Shown: piece after piece, positions 3,580 through 62,470 of the stretch
How the letters are laid out: the number at the start of each line of letters is the position of its first letter
How positions within the stretch are numbered: position 1 is the stretch's first letter
IMG/VR virus record: IMGVR_UViG_3300031758_000004
Span: 1-64,000 of that record
Reading direction: 5' to 3' (one strand)
Length of the DNA stretch: 64,000 bases
Origin: a virus
Notes under the pieces: generated by a model
Told to the model about the DNA's origin: nothing
The model's database searches: none
Seen by the model: only the letters and a program-made list of their open reading frames with translations
Made by a program: the position numbers and the translations under genes

Positions 3580-4266
3580 ATGGAAGATAATGATGTTTTT
3601 AGATTTGAAGATTTTCTAGGTGGTAATAAAATGGAAGATCTTAAAAAGATGAAGTCAAATCTATTAAAAGAAGGTTTGTTTTCAGATAGATATGAAGATG
3701 ATGAGGTTGATGAAGATAAAGAAATATTTACAAATATCAACGACGCCGCCGATGATGAAGATGAAATTGATCAAAGCTTAAATCCTTATAATAACTACAA
3801 TAGTGAGGAAGAACAAGAACAAGATGATTATTCATTTGATAATTCTTCAGAAGAGGAAGATTTGGAAGAAAATAACGAAAGTTATAATGATGAAGATTCA
3901 TATGTGTTATACAAAGATAAATCTGAAGAATTTATTTGTGATATAGCAATTGAAGGTGTAAGTCAAAAAGATACAGAAGTTAGATTAGTAATTGAATCAG
4001 CTGATTGGAATCTTATGTTTAAAGGTGAGGTTAAAAACGGTAAATGTATCATTCCTATTAAGAAATTAAGCCTTTTTAATGAAGGACAAAGAGGTAATAT
4101 AAAACTAGAAGTAAATGCTGATGGTAACTTATTCACACCTTGGAAAGATGAATTTATTGTTAAAGTATCTAAAAAGGTAACAGTTAATCTAAATGAAAAT
4201 AAAAAAATACGACCAATTAAAAAAGAAACTGGTGTAAAAGTAAAAGTAAACAAAAAGAGACCATAA
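3580..4266 (+). CDS. Hypothetical protein with acidic N-terminal half
   Basis: 228 aa, D/E-rich; TAATATATA at 3567-3575 overlaps the upstream stop. Confidence 0.75.
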   Translation: MEDNDVFRFEDFLGGNKMEDLKKMKSNLLKEGLFSDRYEDDEVDEDKEIFTNINDAADDEDEIDQSLNPYNNYNSEEEQEQDDYSFDNSSEEEDLEENNESYNDEDSYVLYKDKSEEFICDIAIEGVSQKDTEVRLVIESADWNLMFKGEVKNGKCIIPIKKLSLFNEGQRGNIKLEVNADGNLFTPWKDEFIVKVSKKVTVNLNENKKIRPIKKETGVKVKVNKKRP

Positions 4267-4279
4267 AGGTCTCTTTTTT
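4252..4279. terminator. Bidirectional intrinsic terminator
   Basis: aaaaagagacc-ataaa-ggtctcttttt between convergent genes. Confidence 0.85.
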
Positions 4280-4281
4280 AT

Positions 4282-6600
4282 TTAAAAATTAAATTGTGGT
4301 AAAACATCTTCATCCAAGTTTGGCACTCTTATTAAACCAGAATTCATTATTGTGTCAATAACCATTTTACCAGTAATTGACTTAGTACATTCAAACTGTC
4401 TTTCAGTACCTTTATGATCCGGACACCAATTCCAATCACCAGCATCTAATCTATATCTATTGTAACAACCATTACAAACTGAATCATTGAAAATTCTAAA
4501 TACATTCTCACCTTCAAATTCAGAGATTGGTTTACTAAATCCTGATATCAAGAATGTTGGGACTCCTATTGTCCAAGATACCCAACTCAAACCAGAACCA
4601 ACTCCTATAAAAAACTCACAAGATAACATTGTTTCCATTAGTTTCTCCATTGATCCCTCTGGTAATTTCACACATCCTTCTGGATGTTTATTACCCATAT
4701 AATTATCACCTTCTTTAGAAAGAATCATAACTTCATATCCACTAGCCTTCAAAAAATAAACAACTTCCTGCCATCCAGTTGGATTATTCCAGTATTTAGT
4801 TTGTGCAGTTGAGTGAATTGCTATACCAACTCTTTTCTTTTTTTCTACTTTTGGTAAGTTAATTTTAGCTCTGACATATTCAAAATCCAAACCTAGTATA
4901 TCAGCTGATGTTTTTCCAAGTGGAATTTCTTTAAAATCTGTTGGATTTTTATCAAACTGTACAGTATTATCCTCATTATAAAACCAACCAATATTATACA
5001 TAGCATAGATGTGATTCACCACTGATCCCGGTTCAACAAATTCAATTTCTGGATAAGTTTCCTTAAATAGGTGATTCCAGAAAGTTGAACATATAACCTC
5101 ACAATTCCATTTTTTTCTAAATTCATCAACATATGGAAACCAAGCCAATGTATCGCCAATTGATCTCGATTCTAATGTTATAAAAACTCTCTTACCCGTA
5201 GCATCATACTTTTTATCATAGATTAATTCTTCACCATCCCAGACTTTACATGTGTACTCTTCAAAATACTTCTTATTTGTTTTTGTCCACATATTACTAC
5301 CAATGGTTGTTGAATATTCACAAAACCCCTTTGAATTCCAGAATTCAACTTTAAATTGTTTATTCAATTTTGACTTAACTTCAATATAAGCACCTCCAAT
5401 ATAATGATTTAAAATACTAACATCCTCATATTTTGGATTGATATTGATATCAGATTTTTCTATATTATCATAGAAATTTAAAAGTTTTTCCTCAAAATTT
5501 GAATTACTATTACTAATTAAATTATGAATTTTATCAACTTCATTTAAATCCTTCACACAATGAAACCCGAAGATATTATTTTTATCATATGGAAATCTAG
5601 ATTGAAATGGATATCCTTTACCGTGTTTATTCATATCAACTGGTAACTCATACCCATCATATTTATATTCTAAAAAGAATTTAACATCATTTGAATTAGA
5701 AACATTTATAAAGAACCAAAACATTTTAGGTATTATATTATTCTTCCATAGAATGCAATTGAATAATATTTCATCATGTAAAAACTCTTTCTCACAAATA
5801 GTCTCAACTTCTTCTAAATCACAAACAGACTTCCATTCTTCAAATATTGATTTATGTGTTTGATTAAAAATAACAACATTTGTTAAACAATATGGTGATG
5901 TTTGTTTATCAACTCCCAATAATTTTCTTGTTAAATCGCCAGGTGTATAGGCACCATTAACAAAAGTATAATCCCAACATCCTCTTTGTAAAATTGGACC
6001 ATCCGTTATGTATTTAGCATATTCAAAAATTTCAGATATATTATCTCTTACTTGAATATCAGAATCTAAAAATACATAGTCCTTATATCCTCTAGAAATA
6101 GCATCTAAAAATGCTGTCGGTTTTGTAAATTGTATATAATGCGGATTGTTAAGATCTCTACTAATATCAATTTTAATATTTTTTATTCGATTATTATTAT
6201 ACATGGTTTCATAACCAATTGTATAATGAAGTATATCTATATTAGTTAATTTAACTAATTGATTAATTAATTTTATAGTTAAGTCTTCATACTTTTTATT
6301 AGAAACCAAAACAAAACATTTTGATCTATCATTTATAACTTGATCATAAATTAATCTATCATTTGAATAAATTTTTAAGAAATACTCTTTATCACCCCAA
6401 GTTGATCTGAAATCTTTATTCATAATAAAAAATGATTTTTTATTATCAACATCTTCTTTGTTTGGTATGATATTAGTTTTTTCAAAAATTAAATCATCGA
6501 AAAATATATTTTTCAAATTAATTAAACAATTTTCAAAAAATTTATCAGTGTTATTTTTTATTTCTAAAAAATCACCATTTATTTTAACATCAAAACTCAT
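4282..6600 (-). CDS. Two-domain glycosyltransferase: N-terminal DxD GT-A domain plus C-terminal TibC/AAH-like (autotransporter O-heptosyltransferase-like) GT-B domain
   Basis: FLDSDIQV motif; SRSIGDTLAWFPYVDEFRKK, FFIGVGSGLSW and the Cys cluster CNGC..WC..C. Likely start MSFDVK at 6600. Confidence 0.7.
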   Translation of the reverse strand: MSFDVKINGDFLEIKNNTDKFFENCLINLKNIFFDDLIFEKTNIIPNKEDVDNKKSFFIMNKDFRSTWGDKEYFLKIYSNDRLIYDQVINDRSKCFVLVSNKKYEDLTIKLINQLVKLTNIDILHYTIGYETMYNNNRIKNIKIDISRDLNNPHYIQFTKPTAFLDAISRGYKDYVFLDSDIQVRDNISEIFEYAKYITDGPILQRGCWDYTFVNGAYTPGDLTRKLLGVDKQTSPYCLTNVVIFNQTHKSIFEEWKSVCDLEEVETICEKEFLHDEILFNCILWKNNIIPKMFWFFINVSNSNDVKFFLEYKYDGYELPVDMNKHGKGYPFQSRFPYDKNNIFGFHCVKDLNEVDKIHNLISNSNSNFEEKLLNFYDNIEKSDININPKYEDVSILNHYIGGAYIEVKSKLNKQFKVEFWNSKGFCEYSTTIGSNMWTKTNKKYFEEYTCKVWDGEELIYDKKYDATGKRVFITLESRSIGDTLAWFPYVDEFRKKWNCEVICSTFWNHLFKETYPEIEFVEPGSVVNHIYAMYNIGWFYNEDNTVQFDKNPTDFKEIPLGKTSADILGLDFEYVRAKINLPKVEKKKRVGIAIHSTAQTKYWNNPTGWQEVVYFLKASGYEVMILSKEGDNYMGNKHPEGCVKLPEGSMEKLMETMLSCEFFIGVGSGLSWVSWTIGVPTFLISGFSKPISEFEGENVFRIFNDSVCNGCYNRYRLDAGDWNWCPDHKGTERQFECTKSITGKMVIDTIMNSGLIRVPNLDEDVLPQFNF

Positions 6601-15733: not shown

Positions 15734-16138
15734 ATGAATATAGTTGGTTGGAGAGAATTATTTCATTTTGTGGATCTTGGATTGGTTAATGTACCTGCTA
15801 AAATCGACACAGGTGCTTACAGTAATGTCTTACATTGTGACGAGATAGAGGAATTAGAAGGTAAATTACATTTTAGAATAGGCGATAAAAACTTCGTCTA
15901 TGAAAAATTCAAAACAATAAATGTTAAAAGTTCATTTGGTCATGAACAAGAACGTTATGCAATTCCCACAAGTGTTATTTTAGGAAATACTCCATATAAA
16001 TTATATGTTTCACTAAACAATCGTGATAATATGCAATATCCTATGTTAATAGGAAGAAGATTTCTACAAAAGTTCAACTTTATTGTTGATGTTAATAAAG
16101 AATGTTTAAATATAAATGATTTTTTTAAAAAAGTATAA
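15734..16138 (+). CDS. Retropepsin-like aspartic protease (RimK-associated 'ATP-dependent Zn protease' type)
   Basis: AKIDTGAYS, PMLIGRRFL. Confidence 0.75.
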   Translation: MNIVGWRELFHFVDLGLVNVPAKIDTGAYSNVLHCDEIEELEGKLHFRIGDKNFVYEKFKTINVKSSFGHEQERYAIPTSVILGNTPYKLYVSLNNRDNMQYPMLIGRRFLQKFNFIVDVNKECLNINDFFKKV

Positions 16139-16673
16139 TTTCTTTACTGGGACACCTAATCATATTTCCAGTGTACTCTTAGAAGTTGTTAACTTCCTTG
16201 AAGTTGATAATTATAATTATGTACTTTTCGCACCTAACAAAGAGAAAAGTTGTGGTCTTATATACGGACTACATAGTTGTATATTATTTAACAACTTTGA
16301 AGAGTTTGAAGAGTTAGTAAACGATAAGTCAAATCTATTTCGAGTTAACTTAATTGTAATTGATCTTTATCAATATAAAAGTCACCAAGTAACAAACTTC
16401 TTAAAAGTCATAGAAAAATTAGATTATAAATTCATTATAATTGCTAAAGAATATCACTACAAATCAACTGATGATGTAAATGATTTTCATGTTGAAATAA
16501 AATATAATCTTGATCCAAATATCACAACACCTACAAGTTTCAATGCCAATAGAAATTTACAATCTAAATTCATTAAAGATAATATCAATGGATGGACAAC
16601 CGAATTAGACAAATTGAAAGGTGCTTACATAAGAGATAAGAAAATTGATTCATTATTTGATGATGAAAAATAA
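16116..16673 (+). CDS. Hypothetical protein with C-terminal IRDKKIDSLF motif
   Basis: 185-aa ORF. Confidence 0.7.
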   Translation: MIFLKKYNFFTGTPNHISSVLLEVVNFLEVDNYNYVLFAPNKEKSCGLIYGLHSCILFNNFEEFEELVNDKSNLFRVNLIVIDLYQYKSHQVTNFLKVIEKLDYKFIIIAKEYHYKSTDDVNDFHVEIKYNLDPNITTPTSFNANRNLQSKFIKDNINGWTTELDKLKGAYIRDKKIDSLFDDEK

Positions 16674-16684: not shown

Positions 16685-16716
16685 TTTGTCTAAATAAAAT
16701 AAAATACGTATATTTG
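16685..16716 (+). promoter_or_regulatory. Bacteroidota-type housekeeping promoter
   Basis: TTTG (16685-88), 20-nt spacer, TATATTTG (16709-16); matches the established TTTG-N19-21-TAnnTTTG consensus. Confidence 0.7.
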
Positions 16717-16749
16717 TATATAATTAAACAATAATATATCTTCAATAAA

Positions 16750-18838: not shown

Positions 18839-18930
18839 CAAAGACTTTGAATTTATGTTCTTTAGTATTTTCTTTATTTACTTTATATAGAACAAAGCTT
18901 ACAATGGAATAATTTATTATATTTGTAATT

Positions 18931-19407: not shown

Positions 19408-19423
19408 TTTTAATATATACTAA

Positions 19424-20353
19424 ATGAAGTATATAAAAAAGTATAAATTATTTGAAAGTGTTTCTGATTATATAGAGTATTATCTAAATGTATTAGAAAC
19501 TGATGATGAGGAAATTAAATATATTTTAATAGATCTTATCGATTTAGGATATACAACATCCTATGATATAGCGTTTATGGGAGCTGATGGTAAACTAAGA
19601 GTAAATAAGAATAGTAGTGAGGTTAAACCAAGATTAATTTTAAAATTAAAGGCGCCGAGTAATATAAATGTTCAAAGAACTAAATATACAAATACAAAAT
19701 TACTTAGTTCTTTAACTAATACAACTAATCACATCATTAGTACTTTTGATGATAAATGTGATATTTATTATATGTTTGGTGGTGGTAGTTGGGATATAAC
19801 TTATGTATTTGAATTTCCTATTGAGAAGGATGATACTAAATTGAAATTCAATATAAATGACTTAAAAGAAATACTTATTAACTCATTTGTAAGTGATGAT
19901 GATTATTCTATGGAATTATCAAACTCAGAAAATGGATTTTCTAAAATTTCATTAAATCTCAATGATCGAAAATCAAAGTCGGAAGAATTATTAAATATAA
20001 TAACTAGAGAGAAGGAAAAGGATTTAGATTATGTTTCAAATGAAGAAGAGTCTATTGATATAATAAAAAAAACACTTATGAACTTTATTAAAAATCTTGA
20101 ATTAAAGTATAATATAAAATTTGAATTTGAGAGTTTAAAGAATAAAAGATTAGAAGATATCAAAACTCAACAATATATCAGAAATGCTATAATCTATTAT
20201 TATAAAAATGGTGATAAGATTGAGTTTATAAACTTAGGATATGAATCATCATTTAATGAATATAAAACAAGTATCAAAAGTGGATTTTTTAAAAAACGTG
20301 ATATTTGGATCGGTTTGGAAGATAAAATAAAAGTTGATTTTAAATTAGCATGA
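19424..20353 (+). CDS. Putative internal head protein (CTS-like N-terminus)
   Basis: MKYIKKYKLFES; TAATATATA at 19411. Confidence 0.6.
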   Translation: MKYIKKYKLFESVSDYIEYYLNVLETDDEEIKYILIDLIDLGYTTSYDIAFMGADGKLRVNKNSSEVKPRLILKLKAPSNINVQRTKYTNTKLLSSLTNTTNHIISTFDDKCDIYYMFGGGSWDITYVFEFPIEKDDTKLKFNINDLKEILINSFVSDDDYSMELSNSENGFSKISLNLNDRKSKSEELLNIITREKEKDLDYVSNEEESIDIIKKTLMNFIKNLELKYNIKFEFESLKNKRLEDIKTQQYIRNAIIYYYKNGDKIEFINLGYESSFNEYKTSIKSGFFKKRDIWIGLEDKIKVDFKLA

Positions 20354-20781
20354 AAATAAAGAAATTTAACGAAAATTTAAGTGATGATATCTTTGATGAT
20401 GAAGATAACTTAAAATATATTTTAACAGAGTTTTCTGATATTGGATTTAATTACGATATCAAATACACACTTTTTTATACAAAACCAAATGGTCAACTTG
20501 ACTGGTTAGGTGATATTAAAGAAAAGGATTTTTCTAAATATAGAGGTGTGAATGAACAAGTGTGTGCTTATCTAATTCAATTTGAAGAACTTTTTGAATC
20601 CGAAGTTGCTACTACTTATACTGATACGAGAGTTGGATTTTCAATACCTGATGATAGATACTTTCTTTTCCAAGAAAAAATAAAATATATTAAAGGAGTT
20701 ATTGAAAGAATGGGTTACGTATTTTCTATGTCAATTAGACAAAGTGGTTATTTTGAATTTCTTATTTTAGAGAAAAAATGA
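20350..20781 (+). CDS. Putative internal head protein (CTS-like N-terminus)
   Basis: MKIKKFNENL; shares the LKYILxEFxDxG pattern with the upstream gene. Confidence 0.6.
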   Translation: MKIKKFNENLSDDIFDDEDNLKYILTEFSDIGFNYDIKYTLFYTKPNGQLDWLGDIKEKDFSKYRGVNEQVCAYLIQFEELFESEVATTYTDTRVGFSIPDDRYFLFQEKIKYIKGVIERMGYVFSMSIRQSGYFEFLILEKK

Positions 20782-27778: not shown

Positions 27779-27802
27779 AAACCACTCAATCGAGTGGTTT
27801 TA
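27779..27802. terminator. Bidirectional intrinsic terminator
   Basis: aaaccactc-aatc-gagtggtttt. Confidence 0.8.
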
Positions 27803-28465
27803 TACTTTTACGTATTTTATATCAAAATGAGGTAATTTTTCAGTAATTACTTTTCTAGCTTTTTTGATATACTTTGAATTATCATCATAAAAAATAGCTT
27901 TTTTAAATCCAGTTTCTTCAATTAATTGAACTATTTTATGACCTTTCCATTCACCTGCATTTCTATGATTTAAACTTGGGTACATATGTAAACCATATTT
28001 TGGTTTACTAAATCCTAAATCTTTAAGAGATTTTAAAATTTTATCTCTGATTATTTCTGGTCTAGCTGTTACAATACATTTATTTTCAACAGAATCATAA
28101 AGATCTTTTAAACTTTTAACCTCTTTTGGTAAACTATCATCTGATAGTGAAAACTCATTTGGTGGTAATAGATAAACTCTTAAACCTTTTCTTACCCAAT
28201 ACTTTGAATTCGATGGTATTTCTAATTGATTATTAGGATCTTCAAAATAAATTCTCCCATCTAAATATTTTAATAAATTTTTATCTACATCGATTTCATT
28301 TATACACTTATTGACTAACTCTTCAACACTAACATCTTCCTTTAAGTAGGGAATTGCTAACTCCTCAAATTCAGGAGTTTCAACTAATGTATCGTCAAAA
28401 TCAAAAATATATAAAATATCTTGATTGACGATACCTTTGAATTCAAAAAACTTTTTAATCTTCAT
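27800..28465 (-). CDS. HAD-superfamily phosphatase with CTS-like N-terminus
   Basis: Likely start MKIKKFFEF at 28465; FDFDDTL, VTAR, FYDD. Confidence 0.7.
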   Translation of the reverse strand: MKIKKFFEFKGIVNQDILYIFDFDDTLVETPEFEELAIPYLKEDVSVEELVNKCINEIDVDKNLLKYLDGRIYFEDPNNQLEIPSNSKYWVRKGLRVYLLPPNEFSLSDDSLPKEVKSLKDLYDSVENKCIVTARPEIIRDKILKSLKDLGFSKPKYGLHMYPSLNHRNAGEWKGHKIVQLIEETGFKKAIFYDDNSKYIKKARKVITEKLPHFDIKYVKV

Positions 28466-31435: not shown

Positions 31436-32059
31436 TTATTTCTTTTTATTTTTAGCTTCTTTAGCTGCTTTTTTCATTGGCTCTTTTTTATCACCATCTT
31501 TATCTAAATCTAAGAAATCTGGTTTAGCACCTTTTTTACCACCTTTTTTCTCATCTTTATCCTCTTTTTTACCTTCTTTCTCAGCTTTCTTTTTATCTAA
31601 ATAAGCTTTGAAACCAGCATTCATTTTTTCATTGAAACCTTTGAAAGACTCAACATAAGTATCTTCTTCAAAATTTTCATCCTCATCTTCGTCTTCATCA
31701 GAACCAAAATCTTCGTGAGAATACTCATCTTCTTCGTGAGAAAAATCTTCTTCGTCTTCATGACCAAAATCTTCGTGAGAATACTCATCCTCTTCATCGT
31801 TACACGGTTCACATTCTTCTTCATCAGAACCAAAATTATCAAATGATGAAATTCTTGATCCACCTAATGATGAATCTTCTTCATCACCCCAATTTTCTTC
31901 ATCATGATTAAATTCATCACCTTCTTCTTCGTCATGACCATAGAAATCATCTTCGTGACCGAAATCACCTTCTTCTTCATCATGACCATAGAAATCATCT
32001 TCTCTTTCAATTTCAGATTCAGGGTTGAAAAATTCATTAATTTTCTTTATAAATCTCAT
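31436..32059 (-). CDS. Highly acidic repeat protein with basic tail (internal head/scaffold-like)
   Basis: MRFIKKINEFF; EDDFYGHDEEEGD x2 and EDEYSHEDFG repeats; C-terminal DFLDLDKDGDKKE. Confidence 0.6.
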   Translation of the reverse strand: MRFIKKINEFFNPESEIEREDDFYGHDEEEGDFGHEDDFYGHDEEEGDEFNHDEENWGDEEDSSLGGSRISSFDNFGSDEEECEPCNDEEDEYSHEDFGHEDEEDFSHEEDEYSHEDFGSDEDEDEDENFEEDTYVESFKGFNEKMNAGFKAYLDKKKAEKEGKKEDKDEKKGGKKGAKPDFLDLDKDGDKKEPMKKAAKEAKNKKK

Positions 32060-32128
32060 TTTATACGTTTTATTTTTAATTATATATTATTTTTTAAAAA
32101 CCGTTTTTTTACTTTTTATATATACATT

Positions 32129-33181
32129 ATGAAAGTTTTTAATTATTCAGAATTCTTGTTAGAAGAAGCAGGTGAAAGACTTAAAGGTCTATTTAAGTTA
32201 TCCAGAGAAGTTAAACATAAATTAAATATAATTATCAATAATTTTGATGATTCAGTGGGTAAAGCTTTGTTAGAATTAGATAGAAGTGAACAAGAAATGA
32301 CTTATATAAATCTACATAGTGAAGATAAAATACTTTATGTTCCAATGGATAAAGTCAAATCTTTTTTTGATAATCCAAGTGTTAATAGATTTGTTAAAAA
32401 ACAAAATCTAAATGATTTAATTAGAATTTACGAATTTAAACCAGATCCAGGAAAACTATATAATTATTATTTTGATACAAAGTTATCATTTACTGAGATT
32501 TATGTTGGTAGATTTGTTAAAAAATTATTAGGTGATACATTTAGTGATAAAGATATATCACTATTTGTGGAAAGATGGGTATCAACAAATACAAGTGGAA
32601 CTTTTCAAATATGGGGAACTGATAAAGTATTAGATGCTTATTGTACAGGTAATTATGAAGAATACTTGGGATCAACTTTAGACCATTCTTGTATGAATGA
32701 TGATCATTCTGTTAATTTTTATAGAGCTTGTCCAGGAGTTAAAATATTGGTACTACTTGATGATCAAGAATCTATAAAGGGTAGAGCTCTTCTTTGGGAA
32801 ACAACTTCTGGTAAAAAATTAATGGATAGAGTTTATTATAATACAGAGGCTGATTATCAAAAGTTTATGAAGTGGGCTATAGATAATGACTATTATACAA
32901 GAAGCAAGACTAGTAATTCAATTGACGCTTTTCATTGGAAAGGAAGTCCGTTAGTAGTTACACTAAAAGAAAAAGTAGTTTTTCCTAATATAGATGAATA
33001 TAGAAATGAAGATTTTCCATATTTAGATACATTTTGTTATTCACAAGGTGGTTTTGGTATGAATTATGAACCATCTGAACCTGGTAAATATTATAAACTT
33101 CAAGAAACGGATGGAACGGTTGAAGAGTTTTTTAATATTGATCCAAGTCAAAGAGATATGACACAAGATGATAATTGGTAA
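32129..33181 (+). CDS. Conserved phage protein with CTS-like N-terminus
   Basis: Likely start MKVFNYSEFLLEEA at 32129; SCM..GRALLW..MDRVY..FPYLDTF. Confidence 0.65.
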   Translation: MKVFNYSEFLLEEAGERLKGLFKLSREVKHKLNIIINNFDDSVGKALLELDRSEQEMTYINLHSEDKILYVPMDKVKSFFDNPSVNRFVKKQNLNDLIRIYEFKPDPGKLYNYYFDTKLSFTEIYVGRFVKKLLGDTFSDKDISLFVERWVSTNTSGTFQIWGTDKVLDAYCTGNYEEYLGSTLDHSCMNDDHSVNFYRACPGVKILVLLDDQESIKGRALLWETTSGKKLMDRVYYNTEADYQKFMKWAIDNDYYTRSKTSNSIDAFHWKGSPLVVTLKEKVVFPNIDEYRNEDFPYLDTFCYSQGGFGMNYEPSEPGKYYKLQETDGTVEEFFNIDPSQRDMTQDDNW

Positions 33182-33202
33182 TCTAAAATTAATATATAAT
33201 AT

Positions 33203-34006
33203 ATGAAAATTAAAAGATATAACGATATTGTAGTTGACTCAATGGTTGAACATTTTATACAATCACTTGAAATGGTAACAGAATCAGATGAAACTGAAAA
33301 TGAAGATTATAAAAGTGTACTAAGAAAAATAGTAAGTGATTTAAATCTTAATTTTAGATTAATTGGGACATTTGGATTTGGAATTGGTGCTTTTATGCCA
33401 ATTATACTTAATATAATGAAAAATGCAAGTTTATCACAAGTTGAAATAACAAAAGAAACAGTAGTTTTATTAGCATTAACATCACTTTCAATTATTTATT
33501 TAGAAGAAAAGAAAACTAAATCACCTAAAGAAGAGGTTGAAATGACAAAGGATTCGAAATCTATGCTTGAGGAATTGAGAATGAGAGGTATTGGTGATGG
33601 AATTGTTAAAAAAGTTATTAAATGTTTGAAATCAGTAACAGGTGTTTTTAAAATATTTGGTAAACACGTTGGTGCTGTTATTGGTGGTATTATAGATATG
33701 TTTGCTTATGGTGCTATGTTAGCTCCTATTTGTGTTTCATTAGCTGATATAATCAATAAATATAAACTTAACTTAGACACAATGCCTGAAAACTTTCTAA
33801 TGTTAGCTAGTGGTGTTGCGACTATTGTTGCTAAACACACAATAGCTCATGTTATTAAAAAATTAAAAAGTAAATTAAAACTTCCAAAGAAAATTGAAGA
33901 TAAAATAGAAGATGAAGTGGAAGAAATGGAAGAACCGACTATACAAAAGACACTAGGAAATAGTCGTTTAGGATCTGAAATAATAAATGATAATAAAAAT
34001 AAGTAA
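33203..34006 (+). CDS. Hypothetical protein with hydrophobic segments
   Basis: 267 aa; TAATATATA at 33190; MKIKRYND start. Confidence 0.65.
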   Translation: MKIKRYNDIVVDSMVEHFIQSLEMVTESDETENEDYKSVLRKIVSDLNLNFRLIGTFGFGIGAFMPIILNIMKNASLSQVEITKETVVLLALTSLSIIYLEEKKTKSPKEEVEMTKDSKSMLEELRMRGIGDGIVKKVIKCLKSVTGVFKIFGKHVGAVIGGIIDMFAYGAMLAPICVSLADIINKYKLNLDTMPENFLMLASGVATIVAKHTIAHVIKKLKSKLKLPKKIEDKIEDEVEEMEEPTIQKTLGNSRLGSEIINDNKNK

Positions 34007-52514: not shown

Positions 52515-53213
52515 TTAAACTTCCCTTTCGAACCACCAATTGAAGTAAATATAATTATCACCTACAAGGTTGTAAGTTTCATCACCATGTCTTACTATGA
52601 TTTTATCAGGGTGTGATCTTACAACCTCTATTTCTAAACCTTTATCCATGATTAGTTGTTTTCCAGTTTCAATTGAATAACAAATAATTTCATCATTTAT
52701 AAGTTTATATGTTCCTGGTTCTGGTTTTAACCACTCTTTGATAGTTTTAATTATCAATCCCTTTATTTTAATAACCCATTCTTTTGCTTGGTATAAATCA
52801 TAGTCTTTAAAAACTTCTGATTCTAGTTCAGCATTTGGACTAAAAATATTTTCAATAACCCCCCAATATTCTTTTTCACCAATTATAAAAGTTAAATAAA
52901 CATTATAATAAATATTATGAGATTTTAAAATTCTAAGTATTTTCATACTTTTTATATCTTGATCTTCAAGTGCTAATTTACCTCTTAGTTGAGCATAAGC
53001 ATTTGAACCTGATAATTTAAACATAATATCATTTATTCTAGCCATTGCTTGTCTAATAGCATCTTGGTTTTTATCAAACGCATTTAAAGATAATTTTGGA
53101 TCATCAACACCTGATATAGACCCAGCTGATGTCTCAGCACCAAATCTTTGAAGATTGAATTCGGTAAAACTTTCATTAAATTTTTCAAATTTTTTTATTA
53201 TTCTATTAGACAT
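52515..53213 (-). CDS. Hypothetical protein with CTS-like N-terminus
   Basis: MSNRIIKKFEKFNESF. Confidence 0.6.
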   Translation of the reverse strand: MSNRIIKKFEKFNESFTEFNLQRFGAETSAGSISGVDDPKLSLNAFDKNQDAIRQAMARINDIMFKLSGSNAYAQLRGKLALEDQDIKSMKILRILKSHNIYYNVYLTFIIGEKEYWGVIENIFSPNAELESEVFKDYDLYQAKEWVIKIKGLIIKTIKEWLKPEPGTYKLINDEIICYSIETGKQLIMDKGLEIEVVRSHPDKIIVRHGDETYNLVGDNYIYFNWWFEREV

Positions 53214-54102
53214 TATCTTCTATTTTATTTTTTATATCATCTTTATAAGATATTCTTATTAGTTTGATATTATTAGAATTACAATAATTTGATTTTATCA
53301 AATCTCTTCTCTTTTGTATTTTAAAACTTTCTTGACCACCATAAAAATCAATAGGTTTGAAGTGTTGTTCACCATCGTATTCTATACAAATATTTAATTT
53401 AGGTAAATAAAAATCGAATCTTAATTCTTTTTTATAAAAACATTCTTTAAATGAGTGTTGACTTATATATTCTATATTATTAAATTCTAATATTCTTCTA
53501 ATCTCTCTTTCTCCTTTAGATTCTTGACATTTTGGACAACCAACTCCACTTAAATGTGAATGTGGCATTTGTTTGAATTTTCCATGTTTCAAACATATTA
53601 TATCAACTTTCTTATTCATGTTGATATACTCAACTAATTTATAGTCATATTTTTTCAAATGTATATTATTTGACCTTTCTATAAAAGTTTCAGTTGTTAT
53701 TTTTTTACATTTTGGACAATCTTGTCCTTTTAGATGATTATTAGGTGTTTGTTCAAATTCACCATGTTTTCTACATATTATTTTAACCTTTATCTTACTA
53801 CCTTTATAATCCACTTTTGAATAATCATACTTATCACCATTTAATAAGATAAAGTCATTAATTATATCTTTATTATTCTTTTTATTAAAATGTTTATCTG
53901 AGCATTCCGGACAATCTTGACCTCTTAAATGATTATTAGGTGTTTGTTCAAAAATACCATGAAATTTACATATTATTTTAACTTTAACTTTGTTATTAAC
54001 ATAAGATACTAATGAATAATCATACTCATCACCTCTTTTTGTGATACAATCTTCAATAAATGATTTAGTATTTTTCTTTTTAGTATTTCTTTGAATTGAC
54101 AT
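53206..54102 (-). mobile_element. Free-standing homing-endonuclease-like gene (CxxHG repeats plus Vsr/DUF559-like nuclease)
   Basis: GDKYDY..ICRKHGEFEQTP..CP.C repeats; IEYDGEQH. Confidence 0.8.
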
Positions 54103-54105: not shown

Positions 54106-54117
54106 TAATATATATTA
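54106..54117. promoter_or_regulatory. Palindromic, bidirectional TAATATATATTA (putative late promoter)
   Basis: Lies between the divergent starts 54102(-) and 54137(+). Confidence 0.6.
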
Positions 54118-54136: not shown

Positions 54137-54454
54137 ATGAGAATTAAGAGATTTTTTGAAAATGAACAAGTTGAACTATCTAACGAAAGAGTAGATGAGA
54201 TTATCAATGAAGTTGAAGACTTTTTAGATGTTTTAAATGAAAAAAATAAATATTTAGAGTCATTAATAATTGAATTAAATAACTATAAAAATCTATCAGA
54301 TAAAGGAAATGATCAAATAGATGATTCTATAGCTTCTTTAGAGCTCGTTAAAAAAGATTTAGATAATACATTTGATAAGCTAGACACAACTTTAAGTAAC
54401 TTAAATTCATATAAAGATGAAGGTAGAAAATACCTTTATATAGAAAAGAAATAA
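54137..54454 (+). CDS. Coiled-coil protein with CTS-like N-terminus
   Basis: MRIKRFFENE. Confidence 0.6.
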   Translation: MRIKRFFENEQVELSNERVDEIINEVEDFLDVLNEKNKYLESLIIELNNYKNLSDKGNDQIDDSIASLELVKKDLDNTFDKLDTTLSNLNSYKDEGRKYLYIEKK

Positions 54455-54864: not shown

Positions 54865-55227
54865 CTATATAAAGTAATATAAGACTAATTTAACAAAATT
54901 TCTATCATCTCTTAAAAGTCTATTAATGTCGATAGAGATTTTTTCTGGATGAAATCCTCTAACTTCGGTTGACTCGATATCTTCTAGATGTAAACCTTCA
55001 CCTAATGTTAAGTACTCATTAACTTCAGATATTACATCTTTAATATCAATAGAGTTAAAGACTCTAATTCCATCAGAGTTTTTTGTTATCTCAATAATAA
55101 GGTAGTTATCTTTGTTATCAACCTTTGTTTTGAAATCAAATTTTTCTAATTTATATAAAATTCTTTCTAAGTTAGACTTAACTGGATCTAATTCATAACT
55201 CTCATTAAACCTTCTCAAATATTTCAT
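54865..55227 (-). CDS. Putative internal head protein (CTS-like N-terminus)
   Basis: MKYLRRFNESY. Confidence 0.6.
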   Translation of the reverse strand: MKYLRRFNESYELDPVKSNLERILYKLEKFDFKTKVDNKDNYLIIEITKNSDGIRVFNSIDIKDVISEVNEYLTLGEGLHLEDIESTEVRGFHPEKISIDINRLLRDDRNFVKLVLYYFI

Positions 55228-55814
55228 TATTTAGTATATTTTAATTTGTAAAGTGTTTTATAAAGAAGAACTACAATATCATCAATAATACTATGTAAAT
55301 GAGTATCTTCCTCATTAATACATTTTCTCTCAACTTTAATAAAAGTAGCTAATTCATTGAAATATTCAATAGTATCTTTAGAAGCGGTTTCTTTTGTATC
55401 AATTACATCATATTCTTCAATAATACCATATTGACCTTGATATGCCTCTATCGTATCATCAATTAATTCCAAAACATCTTCATAATAATCACCAAGCGCT
55501 GTATGTTTAGCATGTGAACCCATATCACCTTTAACTTGTAAGTGATAAATATGTGCCATTTCTCTACTTTCAAATAATTTAGAGAAGAATTTACCCGGAT
55601 TTGAACCTTCGCCTAAGAATTGTTTTGGTTCTTCTTCACTTTGTGCCTGAGCTTGAGCCTGTGATTGTGCCTGAGATTGACTTTGAGCACCTTGACCTTG
55701 TAACATTTTTACAAGTTCATCTTTAGATAATTCATCATAATTTGTTGGAAGATTTGCGTCTTCGTTGAATTTTCTAAGTTTTGATTTCTTTTGTATATCA
55801 GAAAACCTTTTCAT
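55227..55814 (-). CDS. Ferritin/Dps-like four-helix protein with CTS-like N-terminus
   Basis: AHIYHL..H.ALGDYYE..ID..IEAYQG; KLRKFNED; QAQS repeat linker. Confidence 0.55.
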   Translation of the reverse strand: MKRFSDIQKKSKLRKFNEDANLPTNYDELSKDELVKMLQGQGAQSQSQAQSQAQAQAQSEEEPKQFLGEGSNPGKFFSKLFESREMAHIYHLQVKGDMGSHAKHTALGDYYEDVLELIDDTIEAYQGQYGIIEEYDVIDTKETASKDTIEYFNELATFIKVERKCINEEDTHLHSIIDDIVVLLYKTLYKLKYTK

Positions 55815-55901
55815 AATAATATTTTAATTTTTAATTATATATTAAAAAGATAAAACTGAAAATTTCATTTTAATATATAACCTATAAAAATATTTTTTAC
55901 T

Positions 55902-56078
55902 ATGAAATACATCAATAAGTATATTAAAATGTTTGAAAACGAGGTTTTAGAAAGACCGGTTGTTAAAGAACAAACAAAAACAGCTACTGAAAAAGATGTT
56001 GTTGATAGATTAGAAAGAATCTATAAAGAACTTTCAAAAGAAGAAAAAAATGAAATCGATTCTTATTTCCAAAAATAA
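55902..56078 (+). CDS. Small protein (58 aa) with CTS-like N-terminus
   Basis: Hand-read MKYINKYIKMFENE.. behind TAATATATA at 55871. Confidence 0.6.
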   Translation: MKYINKYIKMFENEVLERPVVKEQTKTATEKDVVDRLERIYKELSKEEKNEIDSYFQK

Positions 56079-56086: not shown

Positions 56087-59000
56087 ATGAAATTAAAATT
56101 AAAAGACTTTTCACAATTTTTTGAAGAAGCTGATATTAAAAAGAACATCGGTCTTCCGAAAGATTTTACATCAAGAGCTGAAGAAGAAGCAACTAAAAAT
56201 TTAGGTATTAATATAGATCAACCAACTCGAAGTAGATTGATGGAATATGCTGATAAAGCTGATCAACTAATGGGTAGATCTATTCCAAAAAATCAGATTG
56301 AAGAGAAATATACTCAATTGGAAAACTTAGCAAAAAAAGTTATTGAGACTGAATATAAAGCAGTATTTGAGTTTCTACCAATTGAATTAGATATTAGACT
56401 AATCAGACCAGGTGAATCTGTTATGGGTGAAATGCCTGAATTGGGAAAAAAACAAGAACAACCTGGTGTTAGACCTGATTATAAAGAAGAAGAATCTCAA
56501 TCCGATGAAGAACAATCTGATGAAACTCAGTCACAATCTCAATCACAAGAAGACGACGATTTCTTTAGTTTTTTTGGAGGTGATGACGAAGAACAAGAAT
56601 CTAATGAAGAGGAAGATTTAGAAAATATTATTGAGCCAGAAGTAACTAATAAAGATGTCGCTATGGCTGTTGATAAAACACAAATCTTAAATATGATTAC
56701 TCAAGGTGCTGGTAAAGCAACCAAAGATATAATCAAGTTTTCTGAATTAATTTCCTCTGAATTAAAAAACATTTTAGGTGATAATTCTGGTGAGATTTTA
56801 AAATTATGGGGTCTTATATCAGATGAAGCTGATAAAGGTGACTGGACAACTCCTATACACATTAAATCAAATCTATTTAAAGATAATCCAGGTGGAATTG
56901 CAGGGGCTGTTAGAGTTTTGTGGGAAAGTAAAAACATATCATATGAATTAGAATTATTAAAAGAAAATTCTAATTATAGTAAAATTGTTGTTAAAGCATT
57001 TGGAGTTGATTTTCCTATGTTGATACATGAGGCTGTAAAAGGTATCTATATGATTTTACAATCACCAGCTATTAAAAAGAATAAGGAATTAGCTGAGGAA
57101 ATTAAAATGGCTACTTCTTCTTATATGGACGAAGCTTCTGATTTTAGATATGGACCATTAGCTCAAAAGATGTTTAGAGATTTTATTTATCATTGTAAAG
57201 ACGCTGATAGATATCCAAATATGGTTGAGAGAGTTTTATACTTTTTAGCAATGGATATTGATAATAATGGTAAATTTACGGATGAACAATTTTTGGAAAT
57301 AACAAAGAGTTTATTTTCTTCTTTTAATAAAGTCGTTGAAGGTGGTAAAATAGAGTTTACTATTAATGAAGAAAGATTTGTTGAATCGATTGCTAGAACT
57401 AAAATCGAAGAATTGATTAAAGAAGAAGTTGATTTTGAAGAAGAAATGGAAAGAATGGAAAGAGAAAAAGATCTTAAATCTGCTCTTCCTTCCGAAAACG
57501 AGCCAAAACAACCAGAGACAACGGTTGATGATGAAGAGGATGAAATTGAAAAATTAAAAAGAGCTACAGCTCAAAGAGAACAAGATTATAGTAATATGTC
57601 ACCAAGAGAAATCCAAGAGTTAATTGATGATGCTTTAGATAGTGGTGATTATGAAAAAGTTAAGTTTCTTTCTCAATTCTTAAAAGAAGGTAAAGAAATC
57701 TATTTAAGAGAAATAGAGATGTTGAATGAAAGAATTAAAATCAGAGAGAAATCAAAATTGATTAAATCCGAATTTATCTTAAATGAGAATTTAGATAAGG
57801 CTAAAAAGTTTATGAAAGATACTTATATCTTAACAACTGCGGCTAATAAAATTGGTTTAGAAAACTTATTTGATCAATCAACTTCTGATAAAATGAAACT
57901 AGAGTTAGGAAGAGGTGAGAAGAAAATACTTACACCTAATGACTTTACTTTAGTTGATTCTGAGAAAAGAAAAGAGTTATCAGGTGTGATGAGAACTATT
58001 CCGGTAAATGATGATAAATTAAGAGAGTTAATTACAACCCCTGAATTTAAATCAATTCGTGAAATAAAAACAACGGTTGATGGTAAAGAATATCAGTTGG
58101 ATAGAGATAATATTGGTTGGTTATTTAATTTTGTTTATTTCTATTACGCTGAGAATATATCATTAGAAGATTTAACAAACTTATATCAACAATTAATTGA
58201 GAATAAAGATATTCTTAATTTATTAGATAAACCTTTTGATTTAAACTTTATTGATATTAAAATACCAAATAATAATGAGAAATTAATTGACTCATTGAAT
58301 AAATTACCTGCTCAAAGAGCTTACAAGAGATTAGAGTCTGACTTACCACCACACCTAAAAAGAGATTTAAAAGATTCTCCTAATTATATCAAGGATCAAT
58401 TCAGAGATTTAGCCTCTTCTTTTAGTGAATTAGATCCAGAATTATATAAAGGTTTCTGGGGTCAGATGATGATGGATGATAGAGAAGGTTCGAAAACATT
58501 TGGTAAGGTTGTTTTTAGAAGTCCTATATCAAGATTTAAGACAATTATTGAGTTAATACAAAATGCGAATGGTTATCTTAACTCTTGTGGTAATGGTTCA
58601 TTTGATGAATTCTATAAAAAATTACAAGCTTGTAATATGAAATGGGGAGCATCTGGAGCAAAAGAAGTTTTCTTTGAAAAAGGAATTTTAATTTTAGAAG
58701 TTGCTTCTTATGAGGCTAATAGAATGCTAAATGGTCATACAACACACTGTATTGTTACAAGCCGTGGACAATGGGATGGTTATGTAAATAGCACAAATGG
58801 ACGATTAACTTATGAAAATAAACAATATTATATTTATAACTTTAATTTACCATCAACAAATAATATGTGGACAATTGGTGTAACAATTCAACCAAATTCA
58901 AGAAACTATATTAGAGCAGCTCATAATAAAACAGATGGTAATGTTGCTTCAAGACTAGTTGATATATTAAGAGACTGGGGTAAAGAATACGATATTAATG

Positions 59001-59890
59001 CTGATGCTGAAAAGAAAGCTAAAGAATTAGGAGCATCTGATTCTGATATTTCTAGTTATGGTCCAGTATTCGCTTTAATGAGACCACTTTCAAGTGAGGA
59101 ATTAGAAAGAAGAAGAAAATCAAGAGAAGCTGAAATTGAAATTACTAAACCTGGTAAAACAATTAAAGACTTAGAGGAATATGTTAAGAAATGGGGAGCT
59201 AGTATCAACCACCTTGATTATTCAACTAAGAAATGTGCTCTTGATTGGGCTGTCCAAGAAGATGATTTAGAGAAAGCTAAGTATATACTTGAAATGGGTG
59301 CTGATCCAAATGTTAGACAAATTAATGTTAATGGTCAGATGGTTCCTGATAAGAAAACAGCAGTTATTAATGGTGCTAAATCATTAGATATGATTAAGTT
59401 ATTGATTTCACACCAATCAATTGTAACACCAGTAGTTTATGAAACTATCAGTGGTGATATAAATGCGGTTGAGTTCCTATTGGATAATAATGTTGATCCT
59501 AATTTTGAAAATTCACTACCGGTTAGAAGATCTTGTAGAGGTTCATTTGATGACGCTAATTACAAAAGAACTGGTGACAGAGGTGAGAGTTACTTAACAA
59601 CATTTGAATTACTTGTTAAGAGAAATGTTAAGCTAACAGATTCAAGAGGAAGAATGATGGTTCTTAAATGGGCTTCTGAATACGCGAGATTGGATATTTT
59701 AGAATATTGTGCTAATATGGGAATTGAGTTTGGATGGATTCAAGCTTATACTTGGGCATATAACTCAAGAAAATTAAATAATAATGATCTTAAAGAATTA
59801 GCAGACTTCATAATACCTTATATTGAGAAATATGAACCTGAACAATGGAAAGAAACTTCTAAAGATAAAAAATGGCATTTAAGTTTATGA
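56087..59890 (+). CDS. 1267-aa multidomain protein with CTS-like N-terminus, UVR-like motif and C-terminal ankyrin-like repeats
   Basis: MKLKLKDFSQFFEEA; IDDALDSGDYEKVKFL; ALDWAVQEDDLEKAKYILEMGADPN; AVEFLLDNNVDPN. Confidence 0.6.
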   Translation: MKLKLKDFSQFFEEADIKKNIGLPKDFTSRAEEEATKNLGINIDQPTRSRLMEYADKADQLMGRSIPKNQIEEKYTQLENLAKKVIETEYKAVFEFLPIELDIRLIRPGESVMGEMPELGKKQEQPGVRPDYKEEESQSDEEQSDETQSQSQSQEDDDFFSFFGGDDEEQESNEEEDLENIIEPEVTNKDVAMAVDKTQILNMITQGAGKATKDIIKFSELISSELKNILGDNSGEILKLWGLISDEADKGDWTTPIHIKSNLFKDNPGGIAGAVRVLWESKNISYELELLKENSNYSKIVVKAFGVDFPMLIHEAVKGIYMILQSPAIKKNKELAEEIKMATSSYMDEASDFRYGPLAQKMFRDFIYHCKDADRYPNMVERVLYFLAMDIDNNGKFTDEQFLEITKSLFSSFNKVVEGGKIEFTINEERFVESIARTKIEELIKEEVDFEEEMERMEREKDLKSALPSENEPKQPETTVDDEEDEIEKLKRATAQREQDYSNMSPREIQELIDDALDSGDYEKVKFLSQFLKEGKEIYLREIEMLNERIKIREKSKLIKSEFILNENLDKAKKFMKDTYILTTAANKIGLENLFDQSTSDKMKLELGRGEKKILTPNDFTLVDSEKRKELSGVMRTIPVNDDKLRELITTPEFKSIREIKTTVDGKEYQLDRDNIGWLFNFVYFYYAENISLEDLTNLYQQLIENKDILNLLDKPFDLNFIDIKIPNNNEKLIDSLNKLPAQRAYKRLESDLPPHLKRDLKDSPNYIKDQFRDLASSFSELDPELYKGFWGQMMMDDREGSKTFGKVVFRSPISRFKTIIELIQNANGYLNSCGNGSFDEFYKKLQACNMKWGASGAKEVFFEKGILILEVASYEANRMLNGHTTHCIVTSRGQWDGYVNSTNGRLTYENKQYYIYNFNLPSTNNMWTIGVTIQPNSRNYIRAAHNKTDGNVASRLVDILRDWGKEYDINADAEKKAKELGASDSDISSYGPVFALMRPLSSEELERRRKSREAEIEITKPGKTIKDLEEYVKKWGASINHLDYSTKKCALDWAVQEDDLEKAKYILEMGADPNVRQINVNGQMVPDKKTAVINGAKSLDMIKLLISHQSIVTPVVYETISGDINAVEFLLDNNVDPNFENSLPVRRSCRGSFDDANYKRTGDRGESYLTTFELLVKRNVKLTDSRGRMMVLKWASEYARLDILEYCANMGIEFGWIQAYTWAYNSRKLNNNDLKELADFIIPYIEKYEPEQWKETSKDKKWHLSL

Positions 59891-60396
59891 AACATTTAAA
59901 AGAATTTAATCAATGGTTTACATCATCATCAACTGGTGGTGATGTAAATCTTGAATATACAAGTAAAGATAAGATTTACTATAATAGTCACAAAGTTACC
60001 TTAACTCATAATGGTAGAAGTGTTGAAGTAACCGCAAAATTTGATACCGGTGCTAAGTCATCAAGTATTGATTTTGGTGTTGCTGAGAAATTGGGTATAT
60101 CAAAAGAGTTATTAGAAAAATGTAAAGAATTAGAAAAAATTGATAGTATACCACTTACTGTTGGTAAACTTGAGAAAAGTAAAATAGAGTTTTTCTATAC
60201 TAATAAACTTAAAAAAGAATTCCCAGGTGATATATCTTATGTTAAGATAGTTAAATCTTCATCAGGTGTTTCTATTAGAGCTTTTGTTCCAGTACAATTA
60301 AGTTATAATGGTAGAGTAATAAAAACTAATGTTAACCTAAGAAATAGAAAAGGTCTTACTTGTGAGATGTTGGTTGGATTAGACGATATGTTATAA
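59887..60396 (+). CDS. Retropepsin-like aspartic protease with CTS-like N-terminus
   Basis: MKHLKEFNQWF; AKFDTGAKSSSID; RKGLTCEMLVG. Confidence 0.7.
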   Translation: MKHLKEFNQWFTSSSTGGDVNLEYTSKDKIYYNSHKVTLTHNGRSVEVTAKFDTGAKSSSIDFGVAEKLGISKELLEKCKELEKIDSIPLTVGKLEKSKIEFFYTNKLKKEFPGDISYVKIVKSSSGVSIRAFVPVQLSYNGRVIKTNVNLRNRKGLTCEMLVGLDDML

Positions 60397-61238: not shown

Positions 61239-61932
61239 ATATGATAAAACTATCACAAATATCCTCGTATGGTTTCGGAATAGTCGATAAACCTATAATA
61301 TCATCTTTAACTAACTTACAATGTTTAGACCAAAAATCGTTCCAATTACTATTTTCTATTATTGATAAAAAAACATCAGATTTTGTGAATTTTCCACCCG
61401 CTATACCTATATTATTTCTCCATTCTTCTTTTATCGTTTTCTTTTTCTTACCAACCTCTGTTATGATTGGTTTGTAAGTTAATTTACAAGATTCCAACTT
61501 TAAAGACGATGGTGAAAGAACTAAAATATCTTTTGTTATCCTATCAAACAATTTTTTTCTTAAAAGTGTTGAGAATGTAACAAGGTCTATTAAGTCACCA
61601 ACTTGAGCACCAAAGTTATAACCTTCGATACCAACTTTAGTTGGTTTTTTGATGTCTATATTTTCTAAAATATCTTCAATGATTTGATCAGTTATTTTAT
61701 CATAGTCTTTTAATTTTACCAATTCACCTTCTGAATAGTCTTTAAAATCTCTATATTCAACATACTTATAACTAACATATTGTTCAGCTAACTTAAACCA
61801 TTTAGTCATTCCTTTCTTACCCATCACTTTACTTTCTCTACAATAGTTGTAAATTTTGAATGTATTTCCAGAACTTACCACTAGTGCTGTTGATATAAGT
61901 GAGGGGTCTATTGCTACTATATTATACTCCAT
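61213..61932 (-). CDS. RuvC-like Holliday junction resolvase/nuclease
   Basis: VAIDPSL, IEGY, terminal DICDS; likely start MEYNIV. Confidence 0.65.
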   Translation of the reverse strand: MEYNIVAIDPSLISTALVVSSGNTFKIYNYCRESKVMGKKGMTKWFKLAEQYVSYKYVEYRDFKDYSEGELVKLKDYDKITDQIIEDILENIDIKKPTKVGIEGYNFGAQVGDLIDLVTFSTLLRKKLFDRITKDILVLSPSSLKLESCKLTYKPIITEVGKKKKTIKEEWRNNIGIAGGKFTKSDVFLSIIENSNWNDFWSKHCKLVKDDIIGLSTIPKPYEDICDSFIIFKYLSGLS

Positions 61933-61981
61933 GTGAATATATATCAAAAAATATGTCTTCTATTTTTTAATATATATTACT

Positions 61982-62470
61982 ATGAAATATTTAATGAATT
62001 TTATTATGATGAATGAAAGTATTGAAGGCTATTCTATTGATAAAAGAATGGATAGTGATGATTTTTTAGTTAATTATGAATTTACTGATTTAAATGATAA
62101 TAGATATTTAGTACAATTCAAGAATGATACTGTTGGTCCAAAGTCTAATCCAGTTTTAGGTAAATGTTATGAATTAACATATTATGTTTGGGATGAGGAA
62201 ATCAACAATTGGAATGTTAATAAGTTAGTAAACACAAATCTTTATAAAGTTTTAGTTACGGTATTTGGAACAATACTAAATGACTTTATTAAAAGAAAAC
62301 CTTGGGTCACAAGAATTAGATTTGAGGGACTAGCAAAAGAACAAGAAAGAGAATATGTTACACAAAGAACGAAAGCTTATTTAAGACATTTAAGAAACAA
62401 TCCAGTTCCAAACTTTAGTGTTGAGAATTTTGGAAATAATAGAATAACACTAATAAAAAATAAAATTTAA
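61982..62470 (+). CDS. Hypothetical protein with CTS-like N-terminus
   Basis: MKYLMNFIMMNES; TAATATATA at 61968. Confidence 0.6.
   Translation: MKYLMNFIMMNESIEGYSIDKRMDSDDFLVNYEFTDLNDNRYLVQFKNDTVGPKSNPVLGKCYELTYYVWDEEINNWNVNKLVNTNLYKVLVTVFGTILNDFIKRKPWVTRIRFEGLAKEQEREYVTQRTKAYLRHLRNNPVPNFSVENFGNNRITLIKNKI

Follow-up and report, generated by a model that had tools for sequence, protein, structure and literature searches.

A common N-terminal peptide on unrelated, predicted late proteins of huge T4-related phages, a candidate capsid-loading leader

The window analysed here is a stretch of 64 kilobases (kb) from the IMG/VR virus record IMGVR_UViG_3300031758_000004, and belongs to a viral contig of 135.8 kb, of which it is the minus strand between positions 59941 and 123940. 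The contig has a guanine-plus-cytosine (G+C) content of 27% and a CheckV completeness of 56%. Its DNA polymerase, which belongs to family B and is split, is about 80% identical to those of the uncultured huge phages LR745206.1 (634 kb) and LR756502.1 (642 kb). The identity drops to 43% for LR756504 and LR756501 and to 28% for the Lak phages, behind which thousands of T4-like phages ranked in the polymerase search. LR745206.1 is the nearest complete relative and its whole genome, with 941 open reading frames (ORF), was used for the cross-genome tests. Counts for the contig cover 156 proteins, the share of the window being 70 genes. Collagen-like fibres, glycosyltransferases, helicases, ribonucleotide reductase and large structural proteins are encoded in the window, and roughly one gene in six of the fragment starts with a common peptide of 9-12 residues, hereafter the tag. 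An initial annotation, made from the sequence alone, had assigned a T4-like capsid-targeting N-terminus to 15 proteins of the window. All 15 quoted N-termini agree with the translation at their coordinates and strands, and the downstream ATG codons preferred at 28465, 32129 and 59887 are backed by the N-termini of homologues or by a promoter directly upstream.

The tag occurs in a canonical form, with the consensus M-K-[YH]-[LI]-[KR]-x-[FY]-[NE]-E-[SF] among the LR745206 tags, and in a short form, M[KR]IK[KR][FY], which has one residue less. The top score on the contig (22.6 bits) belongs to the gene at 54865..55227 on the minus strand, whose product of 120 residues begins with the canonical MKYLRRFNES. 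The product of 55902..56078 (plus strand, 58 residues) starts with MKYINKYIKMFENE (17.9 bits) and that of 19424..20353 (plus, 309 residues) with MKYIKKYKLFES, a variant with a YK insertion (17.8 bits). The LR745206 orthologue of the latter is 27% identical overall, yet its start is MKYLKAYKIFES. The gene at 55227..55814 (minus, 195 residues) carries a tag-like KLRKFNED at residues 12-19 (12.2 bits); its product matches Pfam DUF5856 (E 4e-16) and its orthologue retains VKRINEAD. The gene at 59887..60396 (plus, 169 residues) encodes a retropepsin-like or Zn_protease-like protein, with matches to Pfam PF05618 and Asp_protease_2, that starts with MKHLKEFNQ, Gln replacing Glu (11.1 bits); its orthologue starts with MIYLEKFNDW. 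The tags of 52515..53213 (minus, 232 residues; MSNRIIKKFEKFNES) and of 16116..16673 (plus, 185 residues; MIFLKKYNFF) score 10.4 and 10.8 bits, respectively, the second gene having been overlooked in the initial annotation. MRFIKKINEFF, at the start of the product of 31436..32059 (minus, 207 residues), scores 6.0 bits and lies above the 99th percentile of the null. With a net charge of about -51 and DDFYGHDEEEGDFGHEDDFY-type repeats, this protein is an extreme polyanion and possibly a DNA mimic.

The short form is found in four genes of the window. The gene at 20350..20781 (plus, 143 residues; MKIKKFNEN, then an acidic linker) sits downstream of 19424 in one same-strand run. The gene at 27800..28465 (minus, 221 residues) encodes a HAD-fold enzyme in which MKIKKFFEF is followed by DFDDT. 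The remaining two are 33203..34006 (plus, 267 residues; MKIKRYND, with Asp replacing Glu), whose LR745206 orthologue has MKIQRYQE, and 54137..54454 (plus, 105 residues; MRIKRFFENE), whose orthologue starts with MKIKRLYEND. The short form was never found at internal positions, and in one family some homologues have it where others have the canonical form. Since this is so, and given the scores of the LR745206-trained matrix, about 12 of the 15 proposed tags stand. At 61982..62470 (plus, 162 residues) the tag is partial: MKYLMNFIMMNES retains MKYL...NES but scores 2.8 bits, and the orthologue starts with MKYLNSVYNLIFEG. The tags at 3580, 32129 and 56087 are not supported. The product of 3580..4266 (plus) begins with MEDNDVFRFEDFL (FRFEDFL) and scores -0.7 bits. 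That of 32129..33181 (plus; MKVFNYSEFLLEE) is below the threshold, and its EFLLE belongs to a region conserved with its orthologue. The ankyrin-repeat protein of 56087..59890 (plus, 1267 residues; MKLKLKDFSQFFEE) is absent from the 34 best-scoring N-termini and hence also below the threshold. The named cargo was partly correct: the HAD enzyme and the putative aspartic protease (retropepsin-like or Zn_protease-like) are tagged, the ankyrin protein is real but without a supported tag, and the label "Dps-like" for the DUF5856 protein found no match in a PDB sequence search. Simple gene calling outside the window added five carriers on the contig, including MKYLKLFEAFES, MKYIKLFESFGS and MKHIKLFEAFKG.

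The motif K-[IY]-[IL]-K-K-F-[EN]-x-F emerged de novo from an expectation-maximization finder, with a log-likelihood of 145.6 against 123 +/- 5 for shuffles and 139 +/- 12 for segments starting at internal Met, the latter inflated by repeats and paralogues. As this finder is weak as a significance test, matrix tests across genomes were adopted. In the forward test, a matrix built from the contig tags was applied, with a cut-off of at least 10 bits, to the 941 ORF of LR745206, and 99 of them (10.5%) were tagged, versus 0.14% of internal-Met segments and 0.2% of shuffled N-termini. The tag begins at residue 1 in 87 of the 99 and, in the rest, mostly at an internal Met of an over-long ORF call, and its information content fades beyond about residue 12. 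In the reverse test, the matrix was trained on LR745206 only and the threshold was placed at the 99th percentile of the internal-Met and shuffled controls. Thirteen of the 156 contig proteins, eight of them among the 70 of the window, exceeded it (about 1.6 expected by chance). A strict DNA pattern matched LR745206 58 times (52 at gene starts), the contig six times (all at gene starts), LR756504 26 times and LR756500 11 times, with no match in LR756501, Lak-B6, T4, a reversed-pattern control or mononucleotide shuffles. A post-hoc regular expression was 19-46 times commoner in the first 15 residues than elsewhere. Measured against the compositional background, the tag is about 50-75 times commoner at N-termini than in shuffles or internal-Met segments. 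The tag is rich in Lys, and F7 and the following Glu are conserved as strongly as the Lys residues. Core replication and structural proteins do not carry it. The tag is real and lineage-specific.

The consensus varies by lineage: LR756500 has MKYIKEYE, and in positions 100001-150000 of the more distant LR756501.1 (735 kb) the MKYLKKFNES form is missing and a run of genes starts with M-x-K-x-[FY]-x-x-F-I-N-E-[AS], a pattern nearer to the T4 MKTYQEFIAEA. A 100-kb sample of LR756501 (35-37% G+C) displays this sister variant as MIKTFDEFINES, MIKKYIQFINEA and MDKYNNFINEA, and some examples also occur in LR745206.

The initial annotation had described the carriers as unrelated, and those of the window indeed show no mutual BLAST similarity past residue 20. 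The 99 carriers of LR745206 fall into 90 BLAST clusters, of which 84 are singletons, and only about eight have a Pfam match: NUDIX (two), DUF6576 (two), NFACT-R, Peptidase_M15_4, Zn_protease and Toprim_2. A single family of paralogues was rejected on account of these clusters, the absent cross-similarity and the distinct folds. The tagged proteins are small (median of 158 residues), have a linker rich in Asp and Glu after the tag, and are encoded in arrays in variable regions. In the LR745206 orthologues of most of the tagged genes the start is still tag-like, even where the overall identity is 27%. Within the tag, the choice among synonymous codons agrees with the genome-wide usage of LR745206. 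The Lys2 codons are AAA in 50 cases and AAG in 18, against 74% and 26% genome-wide; Leu4 is encoded by TTA, CTA, TTG and CTT, and the tag Ser has TCN as well as AGT codons. It is therefore the amino acid sequence that is under selection, and an RNA-level signal, such as a translational operator or a recombination site, was rejected on the basis of the codon usage.

The HAD-fold enzyme of 27800-28465 illustrates how the tag behaves within one family. More than 100 homologues, at 58-98% identity, retain it about seven residues ahead of the DxDxT motif and alternate between MKIKKF[FN]EF and MKYLKIFETF. A PDB sequence search with this protein gave no match. In its AlphaFold model, which has a mean predicted local distance difference test (pLDDT) value of 86, residues 1-14 have a pLDDT below 50 and no secondary structure, the first strand starts at residue 17, and the closest folds are those of HAD phosphatases, among them MDP-1, Lem4 and YihX. 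The tag is thus modelled as a disordered extension, in which K4 and F9 are at least 90% conserved although disordered. In four homologues (P0053, P0058, P0064 and P0078) two tagged genes are fused. These proteins of about 365 residues start with MKYLKLFNES and retain the second tag internally, without its Met (KVKSLFESFE), just ahead of the HAD domain. They may be polyproteins with an internal cleavage site.

The initial annotation also held that most of the carriers follow the nonamer TAATATATA. This element lies within 45 nucleotides upstream of eight of the 15 genes, and most of the others are downstream in same-strand runs headed by it. In the window the exact nonamer occurs 24 times, versus 7.3 +/- 2.6 expected. 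It is placed at 19411-19419 (before 19424), 33190-33198 (before 33203), 54106-54114 (before 54137), 61968-61976 (before 61982) and 3567-3575 (before 3580), and, on the minus strand, at 32081-32089 (for 31436..32059) and 55836-55844 (for 55227..55814). The copy at 55871-55879 precedes 55902 and heads a run that continues with 56087 and 59887; a late-type promoter is also present at 32129. In LR745206 the motif T[TA]ATATATA is found upstream of the portal, protease-scaffold and capsid genes. On the contig it is upstream of large structural genes and not of the polymerase, helicase and most nucleotide-metabolism genes. Among the LR745206 genes with an upstream spacer of at least 25 nucleotides, a TAATATATA-type promoter precedes 38 of 43 tagged genes (88%) versus 29-32% of untagged genes (odds ratio 18, p = 3e-14), while the host-type TAnnTTTG alone precedes none of the tagged and 17% of the untagged genes. 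This promoter motif supports expression of the carriers late in infection, together with the head genes. Between divergent genes, at 54106-54117 and 61968-61979, TAATATATA forms overlapping palindromic copies on both strands, and one such AT-rich element may serve both directions.

TAnnTTTG corresponds to the housekeeping -7 motif of Bacteroidota. It precedes several non-structural genes (e.g. as TATATTTGTA), at 16700-16749 and 18880-18930 of the window and, on the contig, upstream of 80471-80911, 89103-90971 and 90996-91217 (window coordinates, all on the minus strand). These motifs suggest a Bacteroidota host and a class of early genes distinct from the TAATATATA class.

The T4-type genes of the lineage for the head and for late transcription were examined in LR745206. 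They encode a portal (phrog_213), a gp55-like late sigma factor (phrog_234) and a gp23-like capsid protein (PF07068, 88.7 bits), which can be aligned to T4 gp23 over its C-terminal half. The head maturation protease (phrog_207, E 4e-30; Pfam S77 at 20.1 bits, below the cut-off) is fused to a scaffold with about 11 tandem repeats of 13 residues, YSEY[LI]AENLDKNI, and then a very acidic stretch; its gene is at 198546-200669 of LR745206.1 (L005:2546-4669). Each scaffold repeat holds a T4-like [LI]-A-E site, and the repeats could be multiple docking or cleavage units. Judged from the scaffold repeats and the capsid propeptide, the protease would recognize the candidate sites EY[LI]AE/N (scaffold), EYAE and SINE (capsid propeptide). 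The maturation site of the capsid protein is only a guess, because BLASTP aligns only the C-terminal half to T4 gp23, apart from a weak KWxPxLE match.

In the phage T4, a capsid targeting sequence (CTS) of the internal proteins IPII and IPIII was reportedly described by Mullaney and Black in 1996. As the initial annotation had stated for IPIII, both proteins begin in the T4 record with MKTYQEFIAE/A, and the same record gives MAKINELLRE/S for gp24, MELITELFDE/D for Alt and MLKEQLIAE/A for gp22. The CTS and the 10-residue propeptides of gp24 and Alt are cut off by the prohead protease gp21 (PMC9026906, PMC3012670). Mutagenesis of IPIII assigned targeting to residues 4 and 7 and processing to residues 8 and 10 (PMC9026906), and this leader is all that the internal proteins of T-even phages have in common (PMC9026906; PMC3012670; PMC5694885).

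The tag resembles the CTS in several respects. Both comprise about 10 residues at the extreme N-terminus of otherwise unrelated, fast-evolving proteins, with a Met-Lys start and a hydrophobic or aromatic side chain at position 4 as well as at position 7. Most of the tags, like the CTS, also end in hydrophobic-x-Glu. Position 4 is Leu or Ile in 81 of 87 LR745206 tags and position 7 is Phe or Tyr in 85 of 87, and a hydrophobic-x-Glu ending at residues 7-14 is found in 77% of the tags versus 26% of the untagged N-termini. The canonical tag and the T4 leader have M1, K2, F7 and the terminal Glu in common. The MIKTFDEFINES and MIKKYIQFINEA variant matches this leader at six of 10 positions. Taken as a single comparison this agreement lacks significance; it is suggestive of homology but no proof of it. 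Also shared are the T4-type portal, protease, capsid protein and late sigma factor of the lineage, the arrangement of the genes in arrays and a late-type -10 promoter (TAATATATA here, TATAAATA in T4). On the other hand, the tag is one residue shorter and basic at positions 5-6, where T4 has Gln-Glu. The cargo differs as well, being acidic and including enzymes of metabolic type, and the protease and the scaffold are one protein with 13-residue repeats.

Other phages also load or inject proteins. The propeptides of the ejection or inner-body proteins of phiKZ, 201phi2-1 and SPN3US are cut after Glu by gp21-like proteases (PMC5694885, PMC7411985). As in the reading proposed here for the tag, these phages load many proteins inside the head, and their propeptides are inferred to target the prohead. 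However, they are not relatives of the tag lineage, cleavage follows (S/A/G)-x-E, and the propeptides have 80-160 residues with no short motif common to unrelated proteins. The polyvalent proteins and the P1 Dar system are delivered with the DNA against host defence (PMC5512222, PMC9024508) and share the concept of a diverse enzyme cargo injected with the genome. In contrast, they are giant multidomain fusions or use dedicated packaging partners, and there is no short leader on many small proteins.

The reading preferred here is that the peptide is a T4-type capsid-targeting and processing leader expanded to about a tenth of the proteome, to which a probability of about 50% is given. By analogy with T4, we infer that the tagged proteins may be packaged, cleaved and delivered at infection. 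In such a mechanism, the tagged genes would be transcribed late from TAATATATA by the gp55-like sigma factor, along with the head genes. The first 9-12 residues, flexible and amphipathic with hydrophobic side chains at positions 3/4 and 7, would then dock the protein on a prohead core built by the gp21-like protease fused to the repeat-rich scaffold. Subsequently, the protease would cut after the Glu of [FY]-[NE]-E and take off the tag, and the mature proteins would be retained inside the capsid and pass into the host along with the DNA. The predicted cargo would consist for the most part of small, acidic proteins that evolve fast, joined by a few enzymes (HAD, NUDIX, M15 peptidase, retropepsin-like, Toprim). 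A wider proposal, that huge T4-related phages of Bacteroidota-type hosts load about 100 rapidly evolving proteins per capsid through one leader and deliver them with the DNA as a pre-made kit for takeover and anti-defence, is put forward tentatively and falls somewhat short of an even chance.

Several points weigh against a capsid-loading leader. A hydrophobic-x-Glu is missing from 23% of the tags, and those of 33203 and 59887 in the window end in Asp or Gln; in T4, Asp blocks processing. The tag has only limited identity to the T4 leader, and this similarity could reflect convergence. The number of carriers, about 100 per genome (10% of the ORF), contrasts with roughly five in T4. The tag is not strictly kept between orthologues and may be lost or changed. 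The LR745206 orthologue of 52515, 60% identical, has none, and the tag can therefore be gained or lost. Cleavage-like motifs are not clearly depleted inside the tagged proteins: the observed/expected ratio is 1.05 for [FY]NE and, for hydrophobic-x-Glu, 0.99 in tagged versus 1.10 in untagged proteins, a marginal difference. The contig itself (56% complete by CheckV) gave no Pfam S77 match, and neither a protease gene nor a complete capsid gene is present on it. For the tag-bearing phages, a search found no cultured relative, no virion proteome and no N-terminal sequencing. Finally, the cargo is acidic, with a net charge per residue of -0.060 for tagged versus -0.012 for untagged proteins, and the T4 internal proteins are described as basic (PMC9026906).

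The best-surviving alternative, although improbable, is that the tag is the address for another late process: a chaperone, a Clp/Lon-type N-degron, an assembly site or compartment, or tail loading. A modular, late-expressed tag selected as a peptide names no destination, and an acidic cargo is unexpected beside packed DNA. The degron version gains from the resemblance of N-termini of the type Met-basic-hydrophobic-hydrophobic to one class of ClpX recognition motif. However, the length, the residues at positions 4 and 7 and the hydrophobic-x-Glu of most tags specifically match the T4 sequence and gp21-type sites, the T4-type core and protease are present in the lineage, and there is no evident reason for marking a tenth of the late proteome for destruction.

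Less probable still is an expression aid without a sorting role, in which the tag would be a ramp for leaderless or near-leaderless late mRNAs or would favour the folding or solubility of small orphan proteins. The ATATATA ends at two preferred distances from the ATG, 4-5 or about 20-23 nucleotides upstream, and since it ends 4-5 nucleotides before the ATG in most tagged genes, their transcripts probably start at or near the start codon. This spacing and the Lys-rich N-terminus speak for such an aid. Both spacings, however, are used by tagged and untagged genes: 64 untagged genes share the 4-5-nucleotide spacing, and some tagged genes have 20-27 nucleotides. The synonymous codon use carries no RNA-level constraint, and the conservation of F7 and of the next Glu equals that of the Lys residues. 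The capsid, portal and scaffold proteins, the most highly expressed of the late proteins, have no tag, and Lak-B6, a huge phage with a related family B polymerase (28% identity), has no match to the strict pattern.

Common descent or cassette shuffling is a slightly poorer candidate. The carriers would belong to one fast-diverging family, or recombination would occur at the promoter and first codons, the peptide being a by-product. The carriers are mostly orphans (about eight of 99 with a Pfam match) in arrays within variable regions, adjacent tagged genes can fuse and leave an internal remnant of the tag, and promoter and tag together provide about 40 nucleotides of similar AT-rich DNA. Against this stand the clearly different folds (HAD, NUDIX, M15 peptidase, Toprim, retropepsin-like), the HAD family, which retains the tag at 58% overall identity while switching between its two forms, and a codon variation that does not fit a requirement for identical nucleotides. 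A chance product of a very AT-rich genome (27% G+C), rich in Lys, Asn, Ile, Phe and Glu, would account for the three of the 15 listed examples that are no better than background, but a chance origin of the canonical tag is refuted by the 50-75-fold N-terminal enrichment and by the lack of matches in mononucleotide shuffles, the reversed pattern and Lak-B6.

A family of five paralogues with 300-354 residues, 35-48% identity and internal repeats is also encoded at 13997-14914 (plus), 26799-27767 (plus), 28697-29674 (minus) and 53206-54102 (minus) of the window and, on the contig, at 81084-82148 (plus, window coordinates). The TAATATATA promoter is immediately 5' of four of them, and the fifth (81084) comes after an ORF of 44 residues that has TAATATATA. 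One of the five comes directly after the part of the split DNA polymerase that encodes its N-terminal half. The family probably consists of mobile genes of the endonuclease-like type.

Full-text literature searches found no paper describing the tag. Even if its destination is another one, the literature searched describes no such sorting signal, a peptide code that a tenth of the proteins of a virus have in common and that goes with a single promoter class. Should the tag serve for head loading, hundreds of orphan genes of uncultured huge phages could be assigned to a defined functional class. Their products would be inside the host cell as soon as infection starts, and anti-defence and takeover factors should be frequent among them. 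The T4 targeting principle would then scale from about five to about a hundred cargo proteins and would help to explain the purpose of part of the extra coding capacity of huge phages. The tag would also be a natural, portable signal for packaging foreign proteins in large capsids, and the genome sequence of an uncultured phage would suffice to list its entire injected cargo.

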